Positions 3,428 through 63,553 of a stretch of 64,000 nt of DNA are shown here, piece after piece. The stretch is from Candidatus Harrisonbacteria bacterium RIFCSPLOWO2_01_FULL_44_18 (lineage in GTDB: Bacteria; Patescibacteriota; Minisyncoccia; UBA6257; WO2-44-18): the NCBI GenBank assembly GCA_001817915.1, contig MHJJ01000014.1, positions 3,695-67,694 on the forward strand. Reading direction: 5' to 3'. Both the position numbers and the translations under genes were made by a program. The notes under the pieces were generated by a model. It was not told where the DNA came from. It saw only the letters and a program-made list of their open reading frames with translations, and did not search any database. The stretch's first letter is position 1; each line of letters starts with the position of its first letter.

Positions 3428-3543
3428 TATCTCGGTTCGACGGTAGAAGATCGTGGTTTCCGCTACGGTCGCAGTAACTTCCGTAGCGGACTCCTCGGCC
3501 TTCTGAAAAGGCCGACCACCACTCTCTCGGTTCGTCAGCGGAC

Positions 3544-3583
3544 GGCCGCCCAAGGTAACCCCTTGAGGCGGCCATTTTTTTTT
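3544..3583 (+). terminator. intrinsic terminator closing the GC-rich island
   Basis: Stem ggccgcc / ggcggcc followed by a T9 run. Two more hairpins lie upstream (ccgctacgg/ccgtagcgg at 3461-3491; tcggcc/ggccga). Confidence 0.75.
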
Positions 3584-3603
3584 GATAAAATCATATTACC
3601 GAT

Positions 3604-4119
3604 ATGTATGAATGTTGCACTGAAGCGATAGTTTTAGATAAAGAAGATTTAGGCGAGGCGGACGCCCGAGTTTTTTTATTTACAAAATCGTTAGGTAAAG
3701 TTGTGGCGAAAGTTAAAAGCGCGAAAAAAATAACTTCAAAACTATCTTCGCATTTGGAACCGCTGAATTTAATAACCGTCCGGCTGGTGGAAAAGAACGG
3801 TTTTCAAGTGGTAGATGTTTTATCGAATCGGAAACTCCCGCAATCAGAGCTTCATATTTTAAATATGGTTAATCAGCTAAGCGCCGAGAATCAGCAAGAT
3901 CTTGAACTTTGGTCGGTTTTGACCGGCAGCATTGATTTAAGGCCGGTTGATTTTCAGAAACAAATTTTGAGCGCCTTGGGCTTTGATCCGAAATTCGCGA
4001 GTTGTCAAAATTGCGACAGACCCAGACCAGATTATTTTTCTTTGCTTGATACGAGTTACTTATGCCAAATTTGCGCGTTAAAATCAGGGGTTAGACAAAA
4101 TTGTTTTAAATTAAATTAG
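3604..4119 (+). CDS. recO: DNA repair protein RecO (short form)
   Basis: 171 aa. N-terminal OB-like EAIVLDKEDLGEADARVFLFTK and C-terminal Cys pairs CQNC..CQIC are typical of RecO. Confidence 0.7.
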   Translation: MYECCTEAIVLDKEDLGEADARVFLFTKSLGKVVAKVKSAKKITSKLSSHLEPLNLITVRLVEKNGFQVVDVLSNRKLPQSELHILNMVNQLSAENQQDLELWSVLTGSIDLRPVDFQKQILSALGFDPKFASCQNCDRPRPDYFSLLDTSYLCQICALKSGVRQNCFKLN

Positions 4120-13619: not shown

Positions 13620-13646
13620 GGCCGATAAAAATCGGCCTTTTGTTTT
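13620..13646 (+). terminator. intrinsic terminator
   Basis: Stem ggccgat / atcggcc with an aaaa loop, then ttttgtttt. A second palindrome (tacctttcaataat/attattgaaaggta) follows. Confidence 0.7.
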
Positions 13647-13798
13647 ACCTTTCAATAATGTAAATTATTGAAAGGTAAAACATTTTTAAAAGATCGTTGA
13701 AAAAAAGCTTGAGATTAATTACTGCGCAACAAATAACACAACAAACAACATCCTTACAAACTTGAGAATGTAAGGATGTTGTGTGGTAAGTGCGGTAA

Positions 13799-13954
13799 GC
13801 TCTGAATTACGAAACTCAGTTTTCCGTCATTGCGAGGAGGCTTTGCGACGCGGCAATCATACGTTGCTATCTGTATAAATGAATAAATAATAAAGTAAGA
13901 TTGCTTCGCGAATCCTCGCAATGACGATAGTTTGATAGTTTCGTAATTCAGAGC
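13799..13954. repeat. compound nested palindrome N1
   Basis: Outer perfect 18-bp arms gctctgaattacgaaact / agtttcgtaattcagagc. Inner perfect 14-bp arms cgtcattgcgagga / tcctcgcaatgacg. Confidence 0.85.
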
Positions 13955-13982
13955 GGTAAGCGTGTTGTGCCAAAAAATTTGC

Positions 13983-14703: not shown

Positions 14704-14745
14704 GATTTCGGGAATCGATAGATACTTCTATCGATTCCCGAAATC
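14704..14745. repeat. palindrome of the gatttcgggaatc family
   Basis: Sequence gatttcgggaatcgatagatacttctatcgattcccgaaatc. More arms lie at 14773-14811 and 37541-37598. Confidence 0.85.
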
Positions 14746-20339: not shown

Positions 20340-21392
20340 CTATTTTCTCTCGCTTAATATCGCTTTCGCTTCGAATTCTTTGCCTTGTCTCAAGACTTTT
20401 AGTTTTAATACATCGCCGACTTCAAGATTTTCCAGGAAATCCTGAATCGTCTTTTGAGTAGAGATTTTTTCGCCGTTGCATTCCAGAACAATATCTTTTT
20501 CTTTTATGCCTGATTTATCCGCCGGACTATTGTGGATAATGGCGGATGAATGAGGGCCGTGGCTGATAACCAAAGCGCCATAGCCAACCGGCAGATTTAA
20601 TTTTTCCTTAAGATCTTCATCAATGGTAATATAGCGAAGACCAAGAAGCGGCCGGCGGATTCGCCCATGTTCCTTTAGGTCATGAAGGTCTCTTTTTACG
20701 GTATTGATCGGAATAGCAAAGCCGAGATTTTGAGCGCCGAAGACGATAGCCGCGTTGATGCCGATTGCTTCGCCGTCCAGATTAACTAACGGACCGCCGG
20801 AATTCCCCGGATTGATGGCCGCGTCGGTTTGGATCAAGCCGCGCAATTCCTGAAGCGGCTGTTTTGGGCCGATTGCCGCTTGGATTGATCGGGAGAGTCC
20901 GGAAATGATGCCGGCTGAAACTGTATTTTTAAAAAGACCAAGGGCGTTGCCGATAGCCAAAACGGTTTCGCCTAACTCCACCTTCGAAGAATCGCCTAAT
21001 TTAACTATTGGAAGTTTATTGGCCGGCGGATTGATTTTGATGATTGCTACGTCATCGATTGGGTCGCGCGCCAGAATTTGCGCCTTATATTTTTTGTCGT
21101 CATTGGTGATTACGGCATACTCCGCCTCGCCGTCCGAGATGACATGTTTGTTAGTAACAATAATTCCATTGGCATCAACAATAAATCCCGAGCCGCCGCC
21201 GATTTTGACCATCCCGCGCGCGTCAATCATTTCCTCGGGAATTTGAAGATGAGGATCGCCGGAAGGAAATAGCGGCAACAATTCCGGAGGTATTTCTTTT
21301 TCTATCGCCTCAAGACTTTTTGAAATTACAATCGAAACTACCGACGGCATCACTTTTTTAATTGTTTTAGTAAGAGGGGATTTTTCAGCCAT
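20340..21392 (-). CDS. htrA: HtrA/DegP-family serine protease with PDZ domain
   Basis: 350 aa. TNKHV (His), DDVAIIK (Asp) and GNSGGPLVN (Ser) form the catalytic triad. A C-terminal PDZ-like region is present. Confidence 0.88.
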   Translation of the reverse strand: MAEKSPLTKTIKKVMPSVVSIVISKSLEAIEKEIPPELLPLFPSGDPHLQIPEEMIDARGMVKIGGGSGFIVDANGIIVTNKHVISDGEAEYAVITNDDKKYKAQILARDPIDDVAIIKINPPANKLPIVKLGDSSKVELGETVLAIGNALGLFKNTVSAGIISGLSRSIQAAIGPKQPLQELRGLIQTDAAINPGNSGGPLVNLDGEAIGINAAIVFGAQNLGFAIPINTVKRDLHDLKEHGRIRRPLLGLRYITIDEDLKEKLNLPVGYGALVISHGPHSSAIIHNSPADKSGIKEKDIVLECNGEKISTQKTIQDFLENLEVGDVLKLKVLRQGKEFEAKAILSERK

Positions 21393-21424
21393 GTAATAAA
21401 TTATACCATTTCTATATAAAAATT

Positions 21425-21667
21425 TGGACCTAGCCAGAATCCCCTGCCTGCCGGCAGGCAGGGAACTGGCGTTTCCTCATTGTCCCGACAGCAAAGGTGG
21501 ACCCAAGGAGATTCGAACTCCTGACCTCCACATTGCAAATGTGGCGCTCTAGCCAACTGAGCTATGGGCCCACCTTTACTGTCGTGGATCCTCGACTTCA
21601 TTTTATTATATTTTTTAAAAAAGTGCGTCGGGACAAATGAGGTGTTCTGCCACTGAACTATAGGCCC
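21425..21667 (-). pseudogene. interrupted Ala-type tRNA gene (host of the nested tRNA-Ala; also has a T-loop palindrome)
   Basis: Minus strand reads GGGCCTA-TA-GTTC-AGTGGCA-GAAC-A-CCTCA-TTTG, then a 151-nt insert, then CAA-TGAGG-AAAC-GCCAG-TTC, then a 21-22-nt palindrome, then GATT-CTGGC-TAGGTCC-A. G3:U70 is present. Confidence 0.6.
21498..21571 (-). tRNA. tRNA-Ala(UGC)
   Basis: GGGCCCA-TA-GCTC-AGTTGGCTA-GAGC-G-CCACA-TTTGCAA-TGTGG-AGGTC-AGGAG-TTCGAAT-CTCCT-TGGGTCC-A, with G3:U70. Confidence 0.9.
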
Positions 21668-21735
21668 GCCCACTTGATTTATATTATTCGATTGTTTGGA
21701 TTTTCGCCAGACTTTGTTTGCCAATAAAATCTAAC

Positions 21736-21766
21736 GGTTCAACGCGTTGAACCATTAGAGTTTTTT
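21736..21766. terminator. palindromic hairpin ggttcaacgcgttgaacc with a T-run (possible bidirectional terminator)
   Basis: Perfect 18-bp palindrome, followed by tttttt on the plus strand. Confidence 0.4.
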
Positions 21767-21890
21767 GATTCCTCAACATAATATTTATATTTCTAAACTA
21801 GTTATGCGCGGCATAAAGGAACCGGCGTCAAATACTTCGGGCTTCGGCGAGGCGAAGCTTGCTTACGCTAAAGCTTTGACGAAGCGAATG

Positions 21891-21977
21891 CGGAGACGGG
21901 AGGATTCGAACCTCCGATGCCCTTTCGGGCATACCGCATTTCGAGTGCGGCCCATTCAACCACTCTGGCACGTCTCC
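21891..21977 (-). tRNA. tRNA-Ser(CGA)
   Basis: GGAGACG...CCGCA-CTCGAAA-TGCGG, long variable arm TATGCCCGAAAGGGCATC, GGAGG-TTCGAAT-CCTCC-CGTCTCC-G. Confidence 0.9.
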
Positions 21978-21979
21978 AA

Positions 21980-22159
21980 TGCCCTCGGGAAGAATCGAAC
22001 CTCCATCCGCGCGTTAGGAGTGCGCTGTTCCCCGCCTGCCATCGCTTGTGCCCCCAGAAAGAATCGAACTCTCATCTTTCCCTTAGGACGGGATTGCTCG
22101 GTCCATTGAGCTATGGGGGCTCAGGCCATGGCGGGCAGTATCCATTGAACTACGAGGGC
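21980..22159 (-). pseudogene. interrupted tRNA-Arg(CCU)-like gene (host of the nested tRNA-Arg)
   Basis: GCCCTCG-TA-GTTC-AATGGATA, then a 108-nt insert (22031-22138), then GAAC-A-GCGCA-CTCCTAA-CGCGC-GGAT-GGAGG-TTCGATT-CTTCC-CGAGGGC-A. Confidence 0.6.
22049..22120 (-). tRNA. tRNA-Arg(CCU)
   Basis: GCCCCCA-TA-GCTC-AATGGACC-GAGC-A-ATCCC-GTCCTAA-GGGAA-AGAT-GAGAG-TTCGATT-CTTTC-TGGGGGC-A. Confidence 0.85.
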
Positions 22160-22167
22160 ACGCAATT

Positions 22168-22196
22168 ATTATATTCGATCTTCGGCAACTTGACAA
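22168..22196 (-). promoter_or_regulatory. sigma70-like promoter TTGTCA-17-TATAAT driving the minus-strand tRNA cluster
   Basis: Minus strand reads TTGTCAagttgccgaagatcgaaTATAAT and ends 8 nt before the first tRNA nucleotide (22159). Its -35 overlaps the plus-strand -35. Confidence 0.6.
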
Positions 22197-22217
22197 ATTA
22201 TGTAGACCTGCTATAAT
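22190..22217 (+). promoter_or_regulatory. sigma70-like promoter TTGACA-16-TATAAT for the 3D-domain gene
   Basis: cTTGACAaattatgtagacctgcTATAAT. Confidence 0.65.
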
Positions 22218-22258
22218 TTGGTTAAAGTGCGATAGTTCCCCGAAGGGGGATTTTTTTT

Positions 22259-22720
22259 ATGAATAAGAACATAGGCATCATATTCATTTTCGCCTTGACT
22301 CTGCCGACAACTTTCGCGGGGCAGCTTTATATTGTCGCCCCAGTCTTTGGTGAAGAAACTAACATTTTGGACATTCTTAGCAATCAAATAGCCGTTAGTT
22401 CTCTTTCGGGCGACATGCCGTTTTTTAATAATTCGGCGAGGATGAACGTTGTTGTCACCGGTTATTCTTCCACTCATGATCAAACAGACAGCACCCCGTT
22501 TATTACTGCTTCAGGGAAGCGGGTGCGGGACGGAATTATCGCCGCTAATTTTTTGAAGTTTGGCGCTCGGATTCAGATTCCGGAAATCTTCGGCGACAAG
22601 ATTTTTGTTGTTGAAGATCGGATGGCTCGCCGGTTTTCTGATCGGGTTGATATTTGGTTTCCGGACAGGGCGACGGCTTTAAAATTCGGGAAAAAAGAAG
22701 TGGAGATTGTTATACTCTAA
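22259..22720 (+). CDS. 3D domain-containing protein (RlpA/MltA-like DPBB fold), secreted
   Basis: 153 aa with a signal-like N-terminus. VVVTGYSSTHDQTDSTPFITASGKRVRDGIIAAN and VEDRMARRFSDRVDIWF are typical of 3D domains. Confidence 0.75.
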   Translation: MNKNIGIIFIFALTLPTTFAGQLYIVAPVFGEETNILDILSNQIAVSSLSGDMPFFNNSARMNVVVTGYSSTHDQTDSTPFITASGKRVRDGIIAANFLKFGARIQIPEIFGDKIFVVEDRMARRFSDRVDIWFPDRATALKFGKKEVEIVIL

Positions 22721-23404: not shown

Positions 23405-23631
23405 GCCACCTCCTTTCATATAAATCTCTGTCTGACTTCCGATGTCCCCAATATTGATAATTTTCCGAAGGGCAATCGGCTGGAAGCCGATCGGACATCG
23501 GAAGTCTCAATATTAGGACATCCGATATCCGTCCCGATGTTCATCGGGATCGCCTGCGGCGAGAATATAATATTTGGGATATCGGATGTCTGCCAGCAGC
23601 GCGACCGAGAGCTTATATGAAAGGAGGTGGC
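23405..23631. repeat. compound nested palindrome N3
   Basis: Perfect 18-bp outer arms gccacctcctttcatata / tatatgaaaggaggtggc. Inner pairs are gacttccgatgtcc/ggacatcggaagtc, catccgatatcc/ggatatcggatg and cccgatg/catcggg. Confidence 0.9.
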
Positions 23632-37540: not shown

Positions 37541-37640
37541 GATTTCGATTCCCGAAACCGATAGTGGATTTCGGGAATCCAGCGGATTCCCGAAATCCCA
37601 AATTTAGGACTTATTATTGAAATATGCTATACTTAAATAT

Positions 37641-51728: not shown

Positions 51729-53078
51729 CTATTTTTTAATTTGTTTTACAATTTTTTTGAATTTTCTTCCGCGATCTTTATAATCTTTGAACATGTCAAA
51801 ACTGGCGGCGCCGGGAGAAAAGACGATAGTAACTGGCAATCGGTAATCGGCAATTAGAGACTTCGCAGTTTTATATGCAATTTTAATAGCAGATTCTAAA
51901 TTGCCGCCTTTTCTAATTACTATTTTCTGGTTACTAATTACTGAGGCTATTTTATTTTTATTTTCGCCAAAAAGCATAACAGCTTTGACATTGCAGGCTT
52001 TTTTAATGGCATCGGCAAGAGGTTTATAATTGAGATTTTTATCTTTTCCGCCGGCAATCAAAATGGTTAATTGGTTTGTTGATTGGCTGGTTATTTGGTT
52101 ATTAGAAAAGGAAAGAACGGCGGCGGCGGAAGTTTGCGGATTGGTGCTCGCGGAATCATTGTAAAAATCTATTCTAGAATTCATTCCAACGTTCTTAAGA
52201 ACGTTGGAATGAATTTTTATACCGCGGACGAATTCCAGCCGATGCTCTATTCCTTTAAATTCCGCGATTGTTTTATCAATGATATGGTCGGGACAGTCCA
52301 GATTTTGGGCGATTGCTTTTGCCATCGCGGCGTTTTTTTGATTATGATCGCCCGGGATTTGCAGACCGGGTAGGCCAATGTTTTCCGGAGAAACGGGGAT
52401 TTTTCGAGCAGGCGATTGATCGGCAATCCATTTTGAAAACTTGTTATCAGAGGAATAAAATATCTTATCTTGTTTTGAATTCTGAAAACGGCCGATGTTA
52501 GCTTTGGCATTAATATATTCTTTGAAATTTTTGTGACTATCTAGGTGATCGGGGAAAATATCTAAAATCGCCGCCAATCGCGGAGATTTCGCGAGGTCTT
52601 GGAGTTGAAAACTAGAGAGTTCCAGAATAACCATTGTTCGAGAATCAATTTTTGGCAATATTTCCAGCGCCGACTTGCCGATATTTCCAGCCAAGGCCGC
52701 CTTAAATCCGGAGTTTTTGAGAATTTGATAAAGCAATGTGGCAGTTGTGCCCTTCCCCTTGGTGCCCGTTATTCCGATGACGATTTGTCCGTGATGTCCG
52801 TGTTCAGTCCGCGTGGTTCCGTGAAGTTGTTCAAAGAACAACTTAGTGGCGCTGGAGAAACGAATCCCTTTTTTGATGGCGCGCTGAATCTGCGGTAAAT
52901 TGTACGGCACTCCCGGCGAGCGAAAAACAACATCAAACTTGTCGAGATTTTTTAAATAATTTTTGTCCCGTTTTTGATCCAGAATTTCAATTTTTGCTCC
53001 GCCATAAATCGGCGAGCGTTTCAAGAATTTGAGCGTTGATTTTCCTTCTATTCCAAAGCCCAGAATCGCGATCTTCAT
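51729..53078 (-). CDS. murD: UDP-N-acetylmuramoylalanine--D-glutamate ligase
   Basis: 449 aa with the Mur ligase P-loop GITGTKGKGTTATLL. Contains a 36-bp perfect palindrome in frame. Confidence 0.88.
   Translation of the reverse strand: MKIAILGFGIEGKSTLKFLKRSPIYGGAKIEILDQKRDKNYLKNLDKFDVVFRSPGVPYNLPQIQRAIKKGIRFSSATKLFFEQLHGTTRTEHGHHGQIVIGITGTKGKGTTATLLYQILKNSGFKAALAGNIGKSALEILPKIDSRTMVILELSSFQLQDLAKSPRLAAILDIFPDHLDSHKNFKEYINAKANIGRFQNSKQDKIFYSSDNKFSKWIADQSPARKIPVSPENIGLPGLQIPGDHNQKNAAMAKAIAQNLDCPDHIIDKTIAEFKGIEHRLEFVRGIKIHSNVLKNVGMNSRIDFYNDSASTNPQTSAAAVLSFSNNQITSQSTNQLTILIAGGKDKNLNYKPLADAIKKACNVKAVMLFGENKNKIASVISNQKIVIRKGGNLESAIKIAYKTAKSLIADYRLPVTIVFSPGAASFDMFKDYKDRGRKFKKIVKQIKK
52179..52214. 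repeat. 36-bp perfect palindrome inside murD
   Basis: attcattccaacgttctt|aagaacgttggaatgaat is 12 codons and encodes IHSNVLKNVGMN. A diverged copy lies at about 54665-54700. Confidence 0.95.
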
Positions 53079-54649: not shown

Positions 54650-54831
54650 ATAATTTTGGAAAATGACTTCGGTGTTTATTCCAATGTTCTTAAGAACTTG
54701 AGAATAACCTTTAATTTCTATATACTTCTATTTCACAATCGAGACATAGAAGTACAGCTTATAATATAAAGAAAAATAATTTATCATCAGAAGAATTCGT
54801 ATTTTCCTCCAAAAATGTTAAAATAATAAGC

Positions 54832-59157: not shown

Positions 59158-59216
59158 TCCCAATATCCTTGAGTTGTCATCGAGTTGCCATCTCCCAATA
59201 TCCTTGAGTTGTCATC
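59158..59216. repeat. 24-bp direct repeat x2 (tcccaatatccttgagttgtcatc), 11-bp spacer
   Basis: Copies at 59158-59181 and 59193-59216. The spacer gagttgccatc resembles the end of the repeat. Confidence 0.9.
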
Positions 59217-59251
59217 TCCCGTTATGCGCGCTATAGCGCGCATAACGGGAG
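59214..59251 (+). terminator. 38-bp perfect palindrome plus T-run (terminator-like)
   Basis: tctcccgttatgcgcgcta|tagcgcgcataacgggaga followed by tttt. A second hairpin (gccgcca/tggcggc + tttt) lies at about 59271-59294. Confidence 0.65.
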
Positions 59252-59303
59252 ATTTTAAGTAAATTAATTTAGCCGCCAATTCTGGCGGCTTTTGCGTTAA
59301 TCA

Positions 59304-60319: not shown

Positions 60320-63300
60320 ATGGCTAAAACAAAAGCAAAAAAAGCGAGTAAAAATGAGGAGAAACAGCCTTCTTATACTGCCAAAGACATTTATGTTTTG
60401 GAAGGATTGGAGCCGGTTCGAAAGCGGCCGGGGATGTATATTGGCACAACTGATGTTGCTGGCCTACACCACCTAATTTATGAAGTCGTTGATAATTCAA
60501 TTGACGAGGCGATGGCCGGATACGCGAAAAATATTCAAGTTGAGTTTTTGCCGGGCAATCGGATAGCGGTAACCGATGATGGCCGCGGCATTCCGGTAGA
60601 GATTCATAAACAAACCAAAAAATCCGCGCTTGAAACCGTGATGACAACTTTGCATGCCGGAGGGAAATTTGGCGGCGAATCTTATAAAGTCTCCGGCGGC
60701 TTGCATGGCGTCGGCGTTTCGGTAGTTTGCGCCCTCTCAAAGTGGATGAAAGCGGAGGTTTGCCGCGATAAAGGACTTTATGTTCAAGAATATGAGCGCG
60801 GTAAACCGCAATATAAAGTTAAAAAAATAGCAAAGTGCGATAGTACCGGCACTAAAGTAACTTTTGAGCCGGATCCGGAAATTTTTAAAACGATTGAATT
60901 CGACCGCAAGCGCGTCTTGGATCATTTGCGCCAGCAAGCTTTTCTTACTAAAGGCGCAAGAATCGAAGTCATCGATATTCGCGAAAAAACGCCTTTTTAC
61001 CACGCCTTCTATTTTGACGGCGGACTTTTATCATTTATCAAATTTCTTAACCGCAGCGAAAAACCGCTGCAAGAGACGCCTTTTTACATTAATAAAACCT
61101 CGGAGGGCGTGGAGGTTGAGGCGGTTTTTACTTATAATAACGAATTGGAAATTCAGGAATTGAGCTTTGCCAATAATATTTATACTCCTGATGGCGGGAT
61201 GCATTTGACCGGTTTTCGTTCGGCCTTAACCCGCACTTTAAATGATTATGCTCGCGGCAACGATTATGTTAAAAAAGATGAAGATAATTTGACTGGTGAT
61301 GATGTGAGGGAGGGTCTTGTTGCCATTGTTTCGGTGAAAATTCGCGAGCCGCAATTTGAAGGCCAGACTAAGGCAAGGTTAGGAAATTCTGAAGCCAGGA
61401 CGGCGGTTGAGGGCGTTATCGGTGAAGCGCTTAAGGAATTTTTGGAAAGAAATTCTGTCGATGCCAGGCGTATCATGGAAAAATGCCTGTTGGCCGCTAA
61501 GGCCAGGAAAGCGGCTAAAGCGGCGAAAGAAACCGTGCTACGCAAGGGGATTTTAGAAGGATTAACTCTGCCCGGAAAATTAGCCGATTGTAGTTCAAGA
61601 AACCCCGAAGAATCGGAGTTGTTTATCGTGGAAGGAGATAGCGCCGGTGGGTGTTTTTTCGGTGAAACAAAAGTAGCTTTATTAGATGGAAGGAATATCT
61701 CGTTTAAAGATTTAGTTGAGGAAGAAAAAAAAGGAAAGAAAAATTTTTGTTATACCATAAAAAAAGATGGCCATATTGGCGTTGCTCCTATTTTAAATCC
61801 AAGAATAACCAGGCAGAATGCTAAAGTGGCTAAGGTTATTTTGGATAATGGTCAAGAAATTATATGTACGCCAGGTCATAAGTTTATGCTTAGAGATGGC
61901 ACTTTTAGAGAGGCCAAAGATTTAAATTGCAGAGATTCTTTAATGCCTTTATATCGAAAAAAATCGGAGATTGGAGGGCGAATAACAATTGATGGGTATG
62001 AAATGGTCTACAATCCTAAAGAAAATTTTTGGAGGTTTACTCATGTTTTATCAGATGGGCTTAATTTAGAAAATAAAACGTATTTTGAAACTAATGGACC
62101 ACAAAGGCACCATAAAGATTTTAATAAATTAAATAATAATCCGAATAATATTACCCGACTATCCAAAGAAGATCATTTTAGAATCCATCAAGAAATTGCC
62201 CTGACCGTATTGAGAAGCCCAGAGGTTTTAGAAAAATTAAGGAAAATAAGGCAATCCCCCGAATATAGAAATAGGATAAGCAAAAAAATGCGCGAGCCCA
62301 GAATGAGAGCCATACTTAGCGAAAGAGCCAAAAAACAATGGGAAAACGAGAATTATAAAAAATTTATGGCTCAGAAGTTTTTAGGATTTTATAAAAATAA
62401 TGAGGAATACAGAAATAAAAATAAAAAATTACTGTACAAAAGCCAGATGGAGTATTGGAACAACGAAGACAACAGAAAGAAACAAGCCGAAAGGGTTAGA
62501 AATTATTTCCATAAAAATTTAGTCATAAGGTCTTGGCTTTCTCAAATCGCGAAACAGCAGTGGGATGATTCAGCTCTAATAAAATGGAGGGCGAACAAAA
62601 CCAAAGAACAATGGACTCAAGCATTTAGAATTAAAAGGAGCATGGCTTATAGCAAGACATATAAAGAGAAGGCCCTGAAATTGCTAAAAGAACTTTTTGA
62701 TGGAAATGGGAAAATTGAAAAAGGAGAATATACACGGGAAAGACTTATTAGAAAAGACAAATCTATCCTTAGATATGAAACCATTTGTGAAAGATTTTTT
62801 GATAGTGATGAAAATAAATTGAAAGAAGCCGTAATAAATTACAATCATAAAATTAAAGCAGTGATTCCATTAGAAGAAAAGATGGACGTATACGATATAG
62901 AGGTTCCCAATACTCACAATTTTGCTCTTGCTTCTGGAGTTTTTGTTCATAATAGTAGTAAGCAAGGACGTGACCGGCGAACTCAAGCAATTCTTCCGCT
63001 TAAGGGCAAGATTTTGAATGTGGAAAAATCAAGGATTGATAAAATGCTTTTGAACAAAGAGATTAAAGCGTTAGTGGTTGCCATAGGAACGGCGATAGCC
63101 GAGTCGTTCGATATCAATAAATTGCGCTACCATAAAGTGATTTTAATGACTGACGCCGATGTTGACGGATCGCATATCCGGACTTTGCTTTTGACTCTTT
63201 TTTATCGCTACTTTCCCCAAATTATTGACGAAGGCCATCTTTACATCGCCCAACCCCCGCTTTATCGCGTTCAAAAAGGCAAAGAAATAAGCTATATTTA

Positions 63301-63553
63301 CAGAGAAGAAGAAAGAGAAAAATTACCGAAAGAGGGGATTAATTTACAGCGCTATAAAGGTCTTGGCGAAATGAATCCGGAACAGCTTTGGGAAACGACC
63401 ATGGATCCGGCCAAAAGAGCATTGAGGATAGTGAAGGTGGATGATGTCGAAGAGGCTGATAGAATGTTTGATGTTTTGATGGGTGAAGACGTTGAGCCGA
63501 GGAAAAATTTTATACAAGCCCACGCTCTTTCAGTTAAAAACTTCGATATATAA
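60320..63553 (+). CDS. gyrB: DNA gyrase subunit B, interrupted by an intein
   Basis: 1077 aa. The exteins total 643 aa and carry the GLHHLIYEVVDNSIDEA, EGDSAGG / S-KQGRDR, PLKGKILNVEK and LMTDADVDGSHI motifs. Confidence 0.95.
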   Translation: MAKTKAKKASKNEEKQPSYTAKDIYVLEGLEPVRKRPGMYIGTTDVAGLHHLIYEVVDNSIDEAMAGYAKNIQVEFLPGNRIAVTDDGRGIPVEIHKQTKKSALETVMTTLHAGGKFGGESYKVSGGLHGVGVSVVCALSKWMKAEVCRDKGLYVQEYERGKPQYKVKKIAKCDSTGTKVTFEPDPEIFKTIEFDRKRVLDHLRQQAFLTKGARIEVIDIREKTPFYHAFYFDGGLLSFIKFLNRSEKPLQETPFYINKTSEGVEVEAVFTYNNELEIQELSFANNIYTPDGGMHLTGFRSALTRTLNDYARGNDYVKKDEDNLTGDDVREGLVAIVSVKIREPQFEGQTKARLGNSEARTAVEGVIGEALKEFLERNSVDARRIMEKCLLAAKARKAAKAAKETVLRKGILEGLTLPGKLADCSSRNPEESELFIVEGDSAGGCFFGETKVALLDGRNISFKDLVEEEKKGKKNFCYTIKKDGHIGVAPILNPRITRQNAKVAKVILDNGQEIICTPGHKFMLRDGTFREAKDLNCRDSLMPLYRKKSEIGGRITIDGYEMVYNPKENFWRFTHVLSDGLNLENKTYFETNGPQRHHKDFNKLNNNPNNITRLSKEDHFRIHQEIALTVLRSPEVLEKLRKIRQSPEYRNRISKKMREPRMRAILSERAKKQWENENYKKFMAQKFLGFYKNNEEYRNKNKKLLYKSQMEYWNNEDNRKKQAERVRNYFHKNLVIRSWLSQIAKQQWDDSALIKWRANKTKEQWTQAFRIKRSMAYSKTYKEKALKLLKELFDGNGKIEKGEYTRERLIRKDKSILRYETICERFFDSDENKLKEAVINYNHKIKAVIPLEEKMDVYDIEVPNTHNFALASGVFVHNSSKQGRDRRTQAILPLKGKILNVEKSRIDKMLLNKEIKALVVAIGTAIAESFDINKLRYHKVILMTDADVDGSHIRTLLLTLFYRYFPQIIDEGHLYIAQPPLYRVQKGKEISYIYREEEREKLPKEGINLQRYKGLGEMNPEQLWETTMDPAKRALRIVKVDDVEEADRMFDVLMGEDVEPRKNFIQAHALSVKNFDI
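61652..62953 (+). mobile_element. GyrB intein (434 aa) with an HNH-type endonuclease motif
   Basis: Starts at Cys (CFFGETKVALLDG), has block B TPGHKF, and ends VFVHN followed by Ser. Inserted within EGDSAGG|SxKQGRDR. The internal segment HHKDFNKLNNNPNNITRLSKEDHFRIH looks HNH-like. Confidence 0.88.

Follow-up and report, generated by a model that had tools for sequence, protein, structure and literature searches.

In a 64,000-nucleotide (nt) stretch of DNA from Candidatus Harrisonbacteria bacterium RIFCSPLOWO2_01_FULL_44_18 (assembly GCA_001817915.1, contig MHJJ01000014.1, positions 3,695 to 67,694), hereafter called the window, we found a complete transfer RNA (tRNA) gene for alanine lying inside the anticodon loop of a second tRNA-Ala gene. 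This arrangement had been predicted from the letters of the sequence. We read the minus strand and placed each part by script, and all of the predicted coordinates held (Table 1). The 5' half of the resident gene, which we call the outer gene, reads GGGCCTA-TA-GTTC-AGTGGCA-GAAC-A-CCTCA-TTTG. A 151-nt insert follows, and the outer gene then resumes as CAA-TGAGG-AAAC-GCCAG-TTC-(21 nt)-GATT-CTGGC-TAGGTCC-A.

The inner gene, also tRNA-Ala(UGC), scored 72.1 bits against Rfam RF00005 (threshold 29) and was called Ala(tgc) by ARAGORN. It has the G3:U70 pair, and its 3' end reads ACC followed by T. The outer gene could be rebuilt by joining its two halves and removing 21 nt of a palindrome that interrupts its T-loop. 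The resulting 71-nt sequence was called tRNA-Ala(tgc) by ARAGORN; all of its stem pairs form (21/21), G3:U70 is present, and the anticodon and T loops read TTTGCAA and TTCGATT. That is, the outer gene scores as a tRNA once 21483-21633 and the palindrome have been excised, and the T-loop interruption is a separate one, with a 21-nt deletion restoring TTCGATT, both as predicted. With the palindrome retained in the joined halves, ARAGORN called no tRNA, and its intron mode, run on the unedited locus, returned the inner gene only. The original prediction had been tentative about where in the anticodon loop the junction falls. The loop is restored by a single possible cut, between G35 and C36 (position 35/36), a junction that shows no target duplication. 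The 256-nt transcript is predicted to fold as a cloverleaf within a cloverleaf (-118.4 kcal/mol, z = -8.0). Gene callers placed no open reading frame (ORF) across the locus in the nine contigs that cover all or part of it.

Table 1. Parts of the nested tRNA-Ala and tRNA-Arg loci, in window coordinates. Families A and C are described in the text.
Feature	Position	Strand	Remarks
Outer (resident) tRNA-Ala(UGC), 5' half, tRNA positions 1-35	21634-21667	minus	ends ...CCTCA TTTG
151-nt insert at 35/36 of the anticodon loop; tRNA cassette of family A, without ORF	21483-21633	minus	termini TCCCGA(C)/(G)TCGGGA
Left terminus TCCCGA, pairs with right terminus	21628-21633	minus	same in window, L333 and L244
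AT-rich 31-nt remnant at the place of the GIY-YIG ORF (~320 nt in full-length cassettes)	21596-21626	minus	
Conserved internal motif TCGAGGATCCACGA	21582-21595	minus	14/14 with L333; found also in L244 and L256
Stalk, 5' strand CGACAGTAAAGG	21573-21584	minus	
Inner tRNA-Ala(UGC), presumed working gene	21498-21571	minus	Rfam and ARAGORN
Stalk, 3' strand CCTTTGCTGTCG	21486-21497	minus	
Right terminus TCGGGA	21483-21488	minus	
Outer tRNA-Ala(UGC), 3' half, positions 36-73, T-loop insert included	21425-21482	minus	joined-halves reconstruction
21-nt insert in outer Ala T-loop, between C56 and G57	21442-21462	minus	
Terminator-like hairpin, then T run; divides Arg-Ser(CGA) unit from Ala unit	21730-21759	minus	
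Sigma-70-type promoter TTGTCA-17-TATAAT, ends 8 nt before outer Arg	22168-22196	minus	11/12 consensus matches
Outer tRNA-Arg(CCU), 5' part: acceptor strand, D stem, D loop to GGATA	22139-22159	minus	
108-nt family C cassette in outer Arg D-loop	22031-22138	minus	termini CTGCCCGCC.../...GGCAGGCGGG
Inner tRNA-Arg(CCU), inside family C cassette	22049-22120	minus	
Outer tRNA-Arg(CCU), 3' part, own CCU anticodon loop intact	21980-22030	minus	partial tRNA match, 16 bits

ARAGORN is permissive when it is given an acceptor stem and a T arm, and the flanking halves might therefore resemble a tRNA by chance or have been brought together by a chimeric assembly. JGI metagenomes were searched for a pattern made up of the outer T arm, its T-loop closed, and the acceptor strand; the window itself does not contain this pattern. 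At least 120 metagenome contigs contained it without the insert. Among the matches listed, 109 were within an intact tRNA-Ala (95 CGC, 11 UGC and 3 GGC), and 11 were outside any called tRNA: seven in nested genes and four cut by contig ends. The rebuilt outer gene was identical at 69 of 71 positions to the intact tRNA-Ala(UGC) of three contigs (L250, L255 and L302), both differences falling in the variable loop, and its 5' half matched the first 34 nt of the intact gene in L302 and L250 with no mismatch. The intact counterpart in L250 scores 72.9 bits. Their gene content identifies these three contigs as the corresponding, syntenic locus in a related organism, where the site is empty. L250 and L302 have the tRNA set of the window, that is, Ser(UGA), Ala(GGC), Arg(CCU), Ser(CGA) and Ala(UGC), and an M50 protease that is 62% identical to that of the window; the tRNAs of L255 are Arg(CCU), Ser(CGA) and Ala(UGC). 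Thus, the same outer gene exists uninterrupted elsewhere, the halves are not unrelated sequence, and the 69/71 match excludes coincidence.

An assembly artefact is likewise excluded, because nine independent contigs agree. They come from separate samples and assemblers (JGI, ENA and Logan), and each spans the tRNA region in whole or in part. Eight agree at every position that they cover, and the ninth (L082) differs by one single-nucleotide polymorphism, at position 26 of the inner tRNA. Together with the fold (z = -8), these findings leave practically no weight for chance resemblance or chimerism. An HtrA-type protease gene adjoins the tRNA region, and its product is identical to a protein listed by NCBI for Candidatus Harrisonbacteria, which belongs to the Candidate Phyla Radiation (CPR, Patescibacteria). 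In comparisons based on this gene, made with species-representative genomes and with closer homologs, the genes downstream were kept, the tRNA cluster lay at a synteny break and no orthologous tRNA loci were found.

Occupied and empty alleles of one conserved site are therefore both known: the site is empty in L302, L250 and L255, and it is occupied at 35/36 in the window and in two other CPR contigs, L333 and L244, both among the seven nested matches. The insert in the window has the same site, the same termini and the same internal motif as those of L333 and L244, which are full-length. In the latter two, the 5' half of an outer tRNA-Ala(CGC), ending TTCG, is followed by TCCCGA, an ORF, TCGAGGATCC(A/T)CGA, one strand of a helix that we call the stalk, an inner tRNA-Ala(CGC), the partner strand of the stalk, TCGGGA, and then CAT and the outer 3' half. 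We refer to inserts with the terminal inverted repeats TCCCGA/TCGGGA as family A; further 3' ends of this family were found in L256 and L329. The ORFs of L333 and L244 (83 or 82 amino acids, ahead of the inner tRNA) are both intact, are 66% identical to each other and match the Pfam GIY-YIG nuclease family (PF01541, E = 8e-17 and 2e-14).

The ORF is missing from the window. At its place is an AT-rich remnant that looks like a fusion of the sequences flanking the ORF, and the non-tRNA part of the insert comes to 77 nt. Judged from its sequence, the 151-nt insert is a degenerate copy, without an ORF, of a cassette family that is putatively mobile. The remnant contains TATAAT (21605-21610), which is possibly an internal promoter for the inner tRNA-Ala; a scan for consensus promoters found no two-hexamer match in the Ala insert.

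The stalk had been predicted as a 10-base-pair (bp) helix flanking the inner tRNA. The helix is present, but it is 12 bp long (CGACAGTAAAGG/CCTTTGCTGTCG), and its last bases overlap the terminal repeat. Its sequence varies among the window, L333 and L244; pairing is kept in 36 of 36 cells, with compensatory changes in 6 of the 12 pairs. As a control, partners slid by one to three columns paired in 34-60% of cells. On this pattern of covariation the helix is evidently under selection. The stalk may allow folding and processing of the inner tRNA while it is still part of the outer transcript, and a role at the level of DNA is also conceivable.

These shared parts bear on a simple origin for the nesting, in which two resident tRNA-Ala genes were duplicated locally or recombined and no mobile element was involved. 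The inner and outer genes do have 11 nt around the anticodon (CATTTGCAATG) in common, and a tRNA-Val relic in the same species has a 5' part identical to that of its intact neighbour (see below). But the inner and outer Ala genes are identical at merely 53 of 74 positions, and recombination in the shared stretch would have produced chimeras, not nesting. In addition, the termini, the internal motif and the stalk are common to cassettes in unrelated outer genes of other organisms. We regard a purely local origin as very improbable.

The family A cassette occurs once in the 64 kb, and a hairpin of bare family A termini, TCCCGATGTTCATCGGGA, is also present at 23531-23548. This hairpin is part of a 227-nt stack of nested perfect hairpins (23405-23631) between the M50 protease gene and a tRNA-Ala(GGC) gene. 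The outer stem of the stack is 19 bp, the two inner stems are 14 bp each, and its DNA fold has z = -10.7.

The insert in the outer T-loop, taken with the flanking base, is a perfect 22-nt palindrome, CCCTGCCTGCCGGCAGGCAGGG (21442-21463). Because of the flanking C and G, the coordinates of the insert can be moved by one base. The palindrome occurs once in the 64 kb, and on that ground we rejected a dispersed repeat of the repetitive extragenic palindromic (REP) kind. Its 18-nt core recurs in L237, L250 and L260, and in L250 it lies in a disrupted stretch beside tRNA-Arg(CCU). In that stretch (L250, 3490-3720), the 3' end of tRNA-Arg(CCU) is duplicated, and four perfect palindromes of 16-28 nt, all different, come after the duplicate; one has the core of the T-loop palindrome of the window.

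The palindrome is related to a second nested pair, which the original prediction had placed 400 bp away. This pair (outer span 22159-21980) proved to be real: one tRNA-Arg(CCU) lies in the D-loop of another. In both the Ala(UGC) and the Arg(CCU) pair the inner and outer genes have the same anticodon, as had been claimed. The Arg insert belongs to what we call family C (terminal inverted repeats CTGCCCGCC/GGCAGGCGG), and its termini, CTGCCCGCC.../...GGCAGGCGG(GG), are a slightly diverged copy of the palindrome arms CCTGCCTGCC and GGCAGGCAGG. We read the T-loop palindrome as family C termini that have no cargo, either a cassette remnant or a minimal form. A cargo-less 42-nt hairpin with family C termini is also found in the T-loop of a tRNA-Pro in L244, at the same GTTC/CCTGCC junction.

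When rejoined across the insert, the D arm of the outer Arg gene is that of the intact Arg(CCU) of L302 and L005. Two types of Arg(CCU) circulate among the relatives; the outer gene is of the L302 type and the inner gene of the L250 type (62/73 in each case). The Arg insert contains no promoter, so the inner Arg gene would depend on the promoter of the outer one. A homologous family C cassette, with the same termini, occupies the same D-loop site of tRNA-Arg in L237 and has a further layer inside it. In L317, a tRNA cassette with related termini (CCTGCCCGCC.../...GCAGGCGGG) is inserted at 37/38 of tRNA-Ala. The sites of family C thus include a D-loop, T-loops and an anticodon loop.

Six other perfect or near-perfect palindromes of 33-42 nt are present in the window (52178-52215, 54676-54707, 59214-59253, 13641-13682, 14704-14745 and 37566-37598). 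Those at 52178 and 54676 have a common core, TTCTTAAGAAC. These palindromes could be terminators, operators or further hairpin elements.

Nesting was common in a sample of related metagenome DNA near tRNA-Ala genes (706 kb, 234 called tRNAs). On the same strand as a called tRNA and no more than 100 nt beyond its 3' end, we found 26 orphan T arms, and these follow 20 distinct inner sequences among the 234 tRNAs. Where both halves could be read, the inner and outer genes belonged to one amino-acid family (Ala, Pro, Arg or Leu). Where the outer loop was intact or could be restored (the Ala and Arg pairs of the window, L333, L244 and L317), the anticodon was the same as that of the inner gene. An automated survey of excisions with ARAGORN recovered the clear cases but also chimeras with neighbouring tRNAs (at score 115-120, 1-3 calls with permuted flanks versus 8-11 with real flanks), and explicit parsing was used instead. 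Viral contigs (L093-L212) with two T loops 39-69 nt apart were rejected as cases of nesting; they hold phage tRNAs and short T-arm pieces. In phage tRNA arrays, a perfect T arm with a short acceptor-like stem, not called by ARAGORN, follows many tRNAs at 40-70 nt.

Outer genes outside the window were often in poor condition. On the minus strand of L220 (~3540-3990), five 5' halves of tRNA-Ala come one after another, accompanied by an intact tRNA-Ala(CGC) and by only two 3' halves, the later of which is cut by another inverted-repeat insertion. In L244, the anticodon and D stems of the outer gene no longer pair, and in L329 the outer gene has been reduced to a 3' relic. A further group, family B (termini CCCCGTTAGAAAT/ATTTCTAACGGGG), has no ORF, and its outer loops cannot be restored to CGC. 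Decay was also found within the species: L213 has 99 nt (13868-13966) directly 5' of tRNA-Val(GAC) that are missing in L214. This extra piece is a relic, a duplicate of the acceptor and D-arm part of a tRNA-Val, identical to the 5' part of the intact tRNA-Val. The D-loop of the relic, ~4 kb past the left end of the window, contains the hairpins TCCGAC-CAAA-GTCGGA and GTCCGAC-GCAAG-GTCGGAC. Outer genes look dispensable, because L220, L244, L329, family B and the tRNA-Val relic all show their loss or decay.

ORFs of the GIY-YIG type occurred at 19 places (16 loci) in the sample, and 19 of 19 had a same-strand tRNA no more than 230 nt away. We estimate that ~18% of the sampled sequence is this close to a tRNA. 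In L316, a tRNA-Leu(CAA) and a GIY-YIG ORF lie together inside the D-loop of a second tRNA-Leu(CAA), with a similar hairpin of ~39 nt on each side. L237 has an element in the 5' part of tRNA-Ala (termini CCCCTCACC, direct repeat GGCCTATAG) and a GIY-YIG-bearing copy of it in tRNA-Arg.

Based on these results, we think it probable that a mobile cassette carrying its own tRNA-Ala(UGC) split the resident tRNA-Ala(UGC) at 35/36, that the cassette is selfish and compensates for the damage with a replacement of the same anticodon, and that the outer gene is a relic. What can be read directly from the sequences is an interrupted resident gene, cassettes that have a nuclease gene and others that lack it, sites both empty and occupied, a conserved stalk, successive layers and the decay of outer genes. 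Entry would most likely be by homing: the nuclease would cut an intact tRNA gene, and an occupied copy would serve as the template for repair. Insertion would destroy the host gene, and the event would be tolerated because the cassette carries a replacement with the same anticodon. The inner tRNA is then presumably the working gene. The stalk may help it to fold, and RNase P and the enzymes of 3' processing would cut it from the outer-gene transcript. Since the replacement is itself an intact target, an occupied gene could be hit again, giving nested layers such as those seen in the relatives. The rule of matching anticodons would follow from homology-dependent repair together with the lethality of hits that are not compensated. 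On this explanation the outer halves in the window are a recent relic that has yet to decay.

Several points weigh against this explanation. Because the T arm of the outer gene served as the probe for collecting the relatives, the frequencies are biased toward tRNA-Ala. The cassette nuclease is a catalytic domain alone, with no DNA-binding domain, and the closest relative with a solved structure is an uncharacterized UPF0213 protein; for both reasons, site-specific cutting is an assumption. Neither the window nor the ~15 kb that adjoin it (L213 and L215) contain a GIY-YIG homolog, so the copy in the window would be unable to move by itself. All stems of the outer Ala gene are intact and exact excision gives perfect loops, and a spliced intron would look the same. 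Finally, classical homing fails to explain the terminal repeats, the cargo-less hairpins and the three kinds of loop entered by family C.

The intact outer stems raise the question of splicing. The insert could be an intron with a tRNA as cargo: RNase P and RNase Z would free the inner tRNA, the outer halves would be trimmed and ligated (e.g., by RtcB), the T-loop hairpin would be removed likewise and both tRNAs would mature. Excision at 35/36 and 56/57 does give a flawless cloverleaf, the inserts are confined to loops and extend the helices of the host, and the stalk covaries. The clean insertion in L317 is at 37/38, the canonical position for introns, and group I introns of Patescibacteria likewise occur at 35/36 (PMC13011429). 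However, we rejected both known kinds of intron. There was no match to the Rfam Intron_gpI models in the window at 21300-22300 (E<=10) or in the full-length cassettes of L333 and L244 (E<=1), and neither folding nor inspection revealed a bulge-helix-bulge motif. At the junctions, the anticodon-loop insert forms a continuous helix with one bulged U, and the T-loop insert forms an internal loop in which the unpaired bases are opposite each other.

Splicing by proteins meets other difficulties. We know of no protein-dependent tRNA splicing in bacteria. If RNase P and RNase Z made the cuts, the arms of the stalk would stay on the outer halves, and five layers with the same anticodon have no evident purpose. 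Outer genes elsewhere have altered anticodons, and a ligated outer product is disfavoured because such genes are decayed, truncated or stacked five deep. We therefore consider an intron with tRNA cargo improbable. It is also hardly to be expected that the clean insertions (35/36 here, 37/38 in L317) reveal protein-dependent tRNA splicing in bacteria, with a tRNA as the intron and two or more mature tRNAs from one locus.

A different possibility concerns movement. The inserts could be miniature inverted-repeat transposons that depend for movement on an enzyme acting in trans on hairpin loops in cruciform or single-stranded DNA. The GIY-YIG protein would be a passenger or that very enzyme, and the cognate match would come from the lethality of all other insertions. 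Each family does have its own terminal inverted repeats, but family A makes no target-site duplication. Family C is found in a D-loop, in T-loops and in an anticodon loop, as might be expected of such an enzyme, whereas family A is found solely at 35/36 of tRNA-Ala, as homing predicts. Both families have hairpins that lack cargo (the T-loop palindrome and the bare family A hairpin), and in L316 similar hairpins flank the cassette on both sides; against this, no transposase is encoded nearby and neither hairpin family is repeated elsewhere in the 64 kb. Moreover, random insertion followed by selection would very rarely strike one cognate gene of 75 bp. We think it unlikely that this is the whole explanation, and we take hairpin-targeting transposition as a serious alternative for how the cassettes move.

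The probable origin of the locus, a selfish tRNA-carrying cassette, has partial parallels in known systems. In mechanism the cassettes come closest to the free-standing GIY-YIG endonucleases that T4-like phages have in tRNA clusters, in location to the group I introns at 35/36 of Patescibacteria tRNAs, and in principle to integrative elements, which repair whichever tRNA gene they enter. Seg nucleases of T4-like phages, such as SegB in the tRNA cluster, are GIY-YIG proteins that spread with adjacent tRNA DNA through double-strand break repair ('intronless homing'). As far as is known, their genes lie between other genes and split no tRNA gene; the proteins are ~200 amino acids or more with a DNA-binding domain. 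The likeness to the cassettes is a GIY-YIG nuclease gene among tRNA genes; the cassette ORF differs in being 82-83 amino acids long, a catalytic domain alone, and inside a tRNA gene. To our knowledge, no nesting has been described for Seg genes. SegB and tRNA loci appear in PMC13096335.

Group I introns have been found at 35/36 in the anticodon loops of Patescibacteria tRNA genes (PMC13011429). They are like the cassettes in phylum, in this unusual position, in having a conserved tRNA loop as target, in a possible homing endonuclease and in that harm to the host is avoided. In contrast to them, the cassettes have no match to a ribozyme, and harm would be avoided by a second gene and not by splicing. 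The disrupted tRNA genes of archaea include genes with multiple or non-canonical introns as well as split and permuted tRNAs (PMC4090602, PMC3293823). As in the window, the D, anticodon and T loops are interrupted, helices extend the host stems and mobile elements have been proposed as the cause. Unlike them, the locus in the window is bacterial and has no bulge-helix-bulge motif, its cargo is a complete tRNA of the same anticodon, and outer genes decay.

Integrative elements that target tRNA genes (phages and genomic islands) also enter an essential tRNA gene and bring sequence that keeps it functional. They do so with an integrase, a short 3' duplicate and kilobases of DNA, whereas the cassettes bring a whole gene of ~75 nt, are 108-420 nt long, sit in a loop and have no direct repeats. 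The cassettes resemble miniature inverted-repeat elements and REP-like palindromes in being short and non-coding with terminal inverted repeats, and in including ORF-less derivatives of ORF-bearing copies. They differ in that family A has no target duplication, there is one copy per family in the 64 kb, only tRNA loci are occupied and the cargo is a tRNA. Full-text literature searches, whose coverage was incomplete, returned no account of bacterial tRNA genes nested in tRNA genes.

Two other genes in this part of the chromosome are of interest. The gyrase B gene of the window (60320-63553; 1077 amino acids) contains an intein (Pfam Intein_splicing). Just past the right end of the window (L215, 14181-14567), a gene of the PDDEXK_3 nuclease family is found between nusG and rplK, a location unusual enough to suggest a further selfish insertion.

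The nesting of cassettes in matching tRNA genes, sometimes several layers deep, is a widespread habit that has apparently not been described. Standard tRNA finders return the innermost gene only, and such nesting is invisible in current annotation. If our explanation is correct, these cassettes would follow a selfish strategy that we did not find described in the literature, in which the element disrupts an essential, conserved gene and makes up for it by supplying a complete replacement rather than by splicing itself out. Because such an element would re-create its own target, invasion could be repeated and would pile up fossil tRNA genes in layers, so that a single locus would naturally preserve the succession of its tRNA alleles. 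Small GIY-YIG (UPF0213-like) proteins, which are abundant and encoded beside tRNA genes, would have a testable role, and the debate over how archaeal tRNA genes came to be interrupted would gain a bacterial counterpart. For bacteria with very small genomes, the cassettes would provide a route for the horizontal replacement of tRNA genes.

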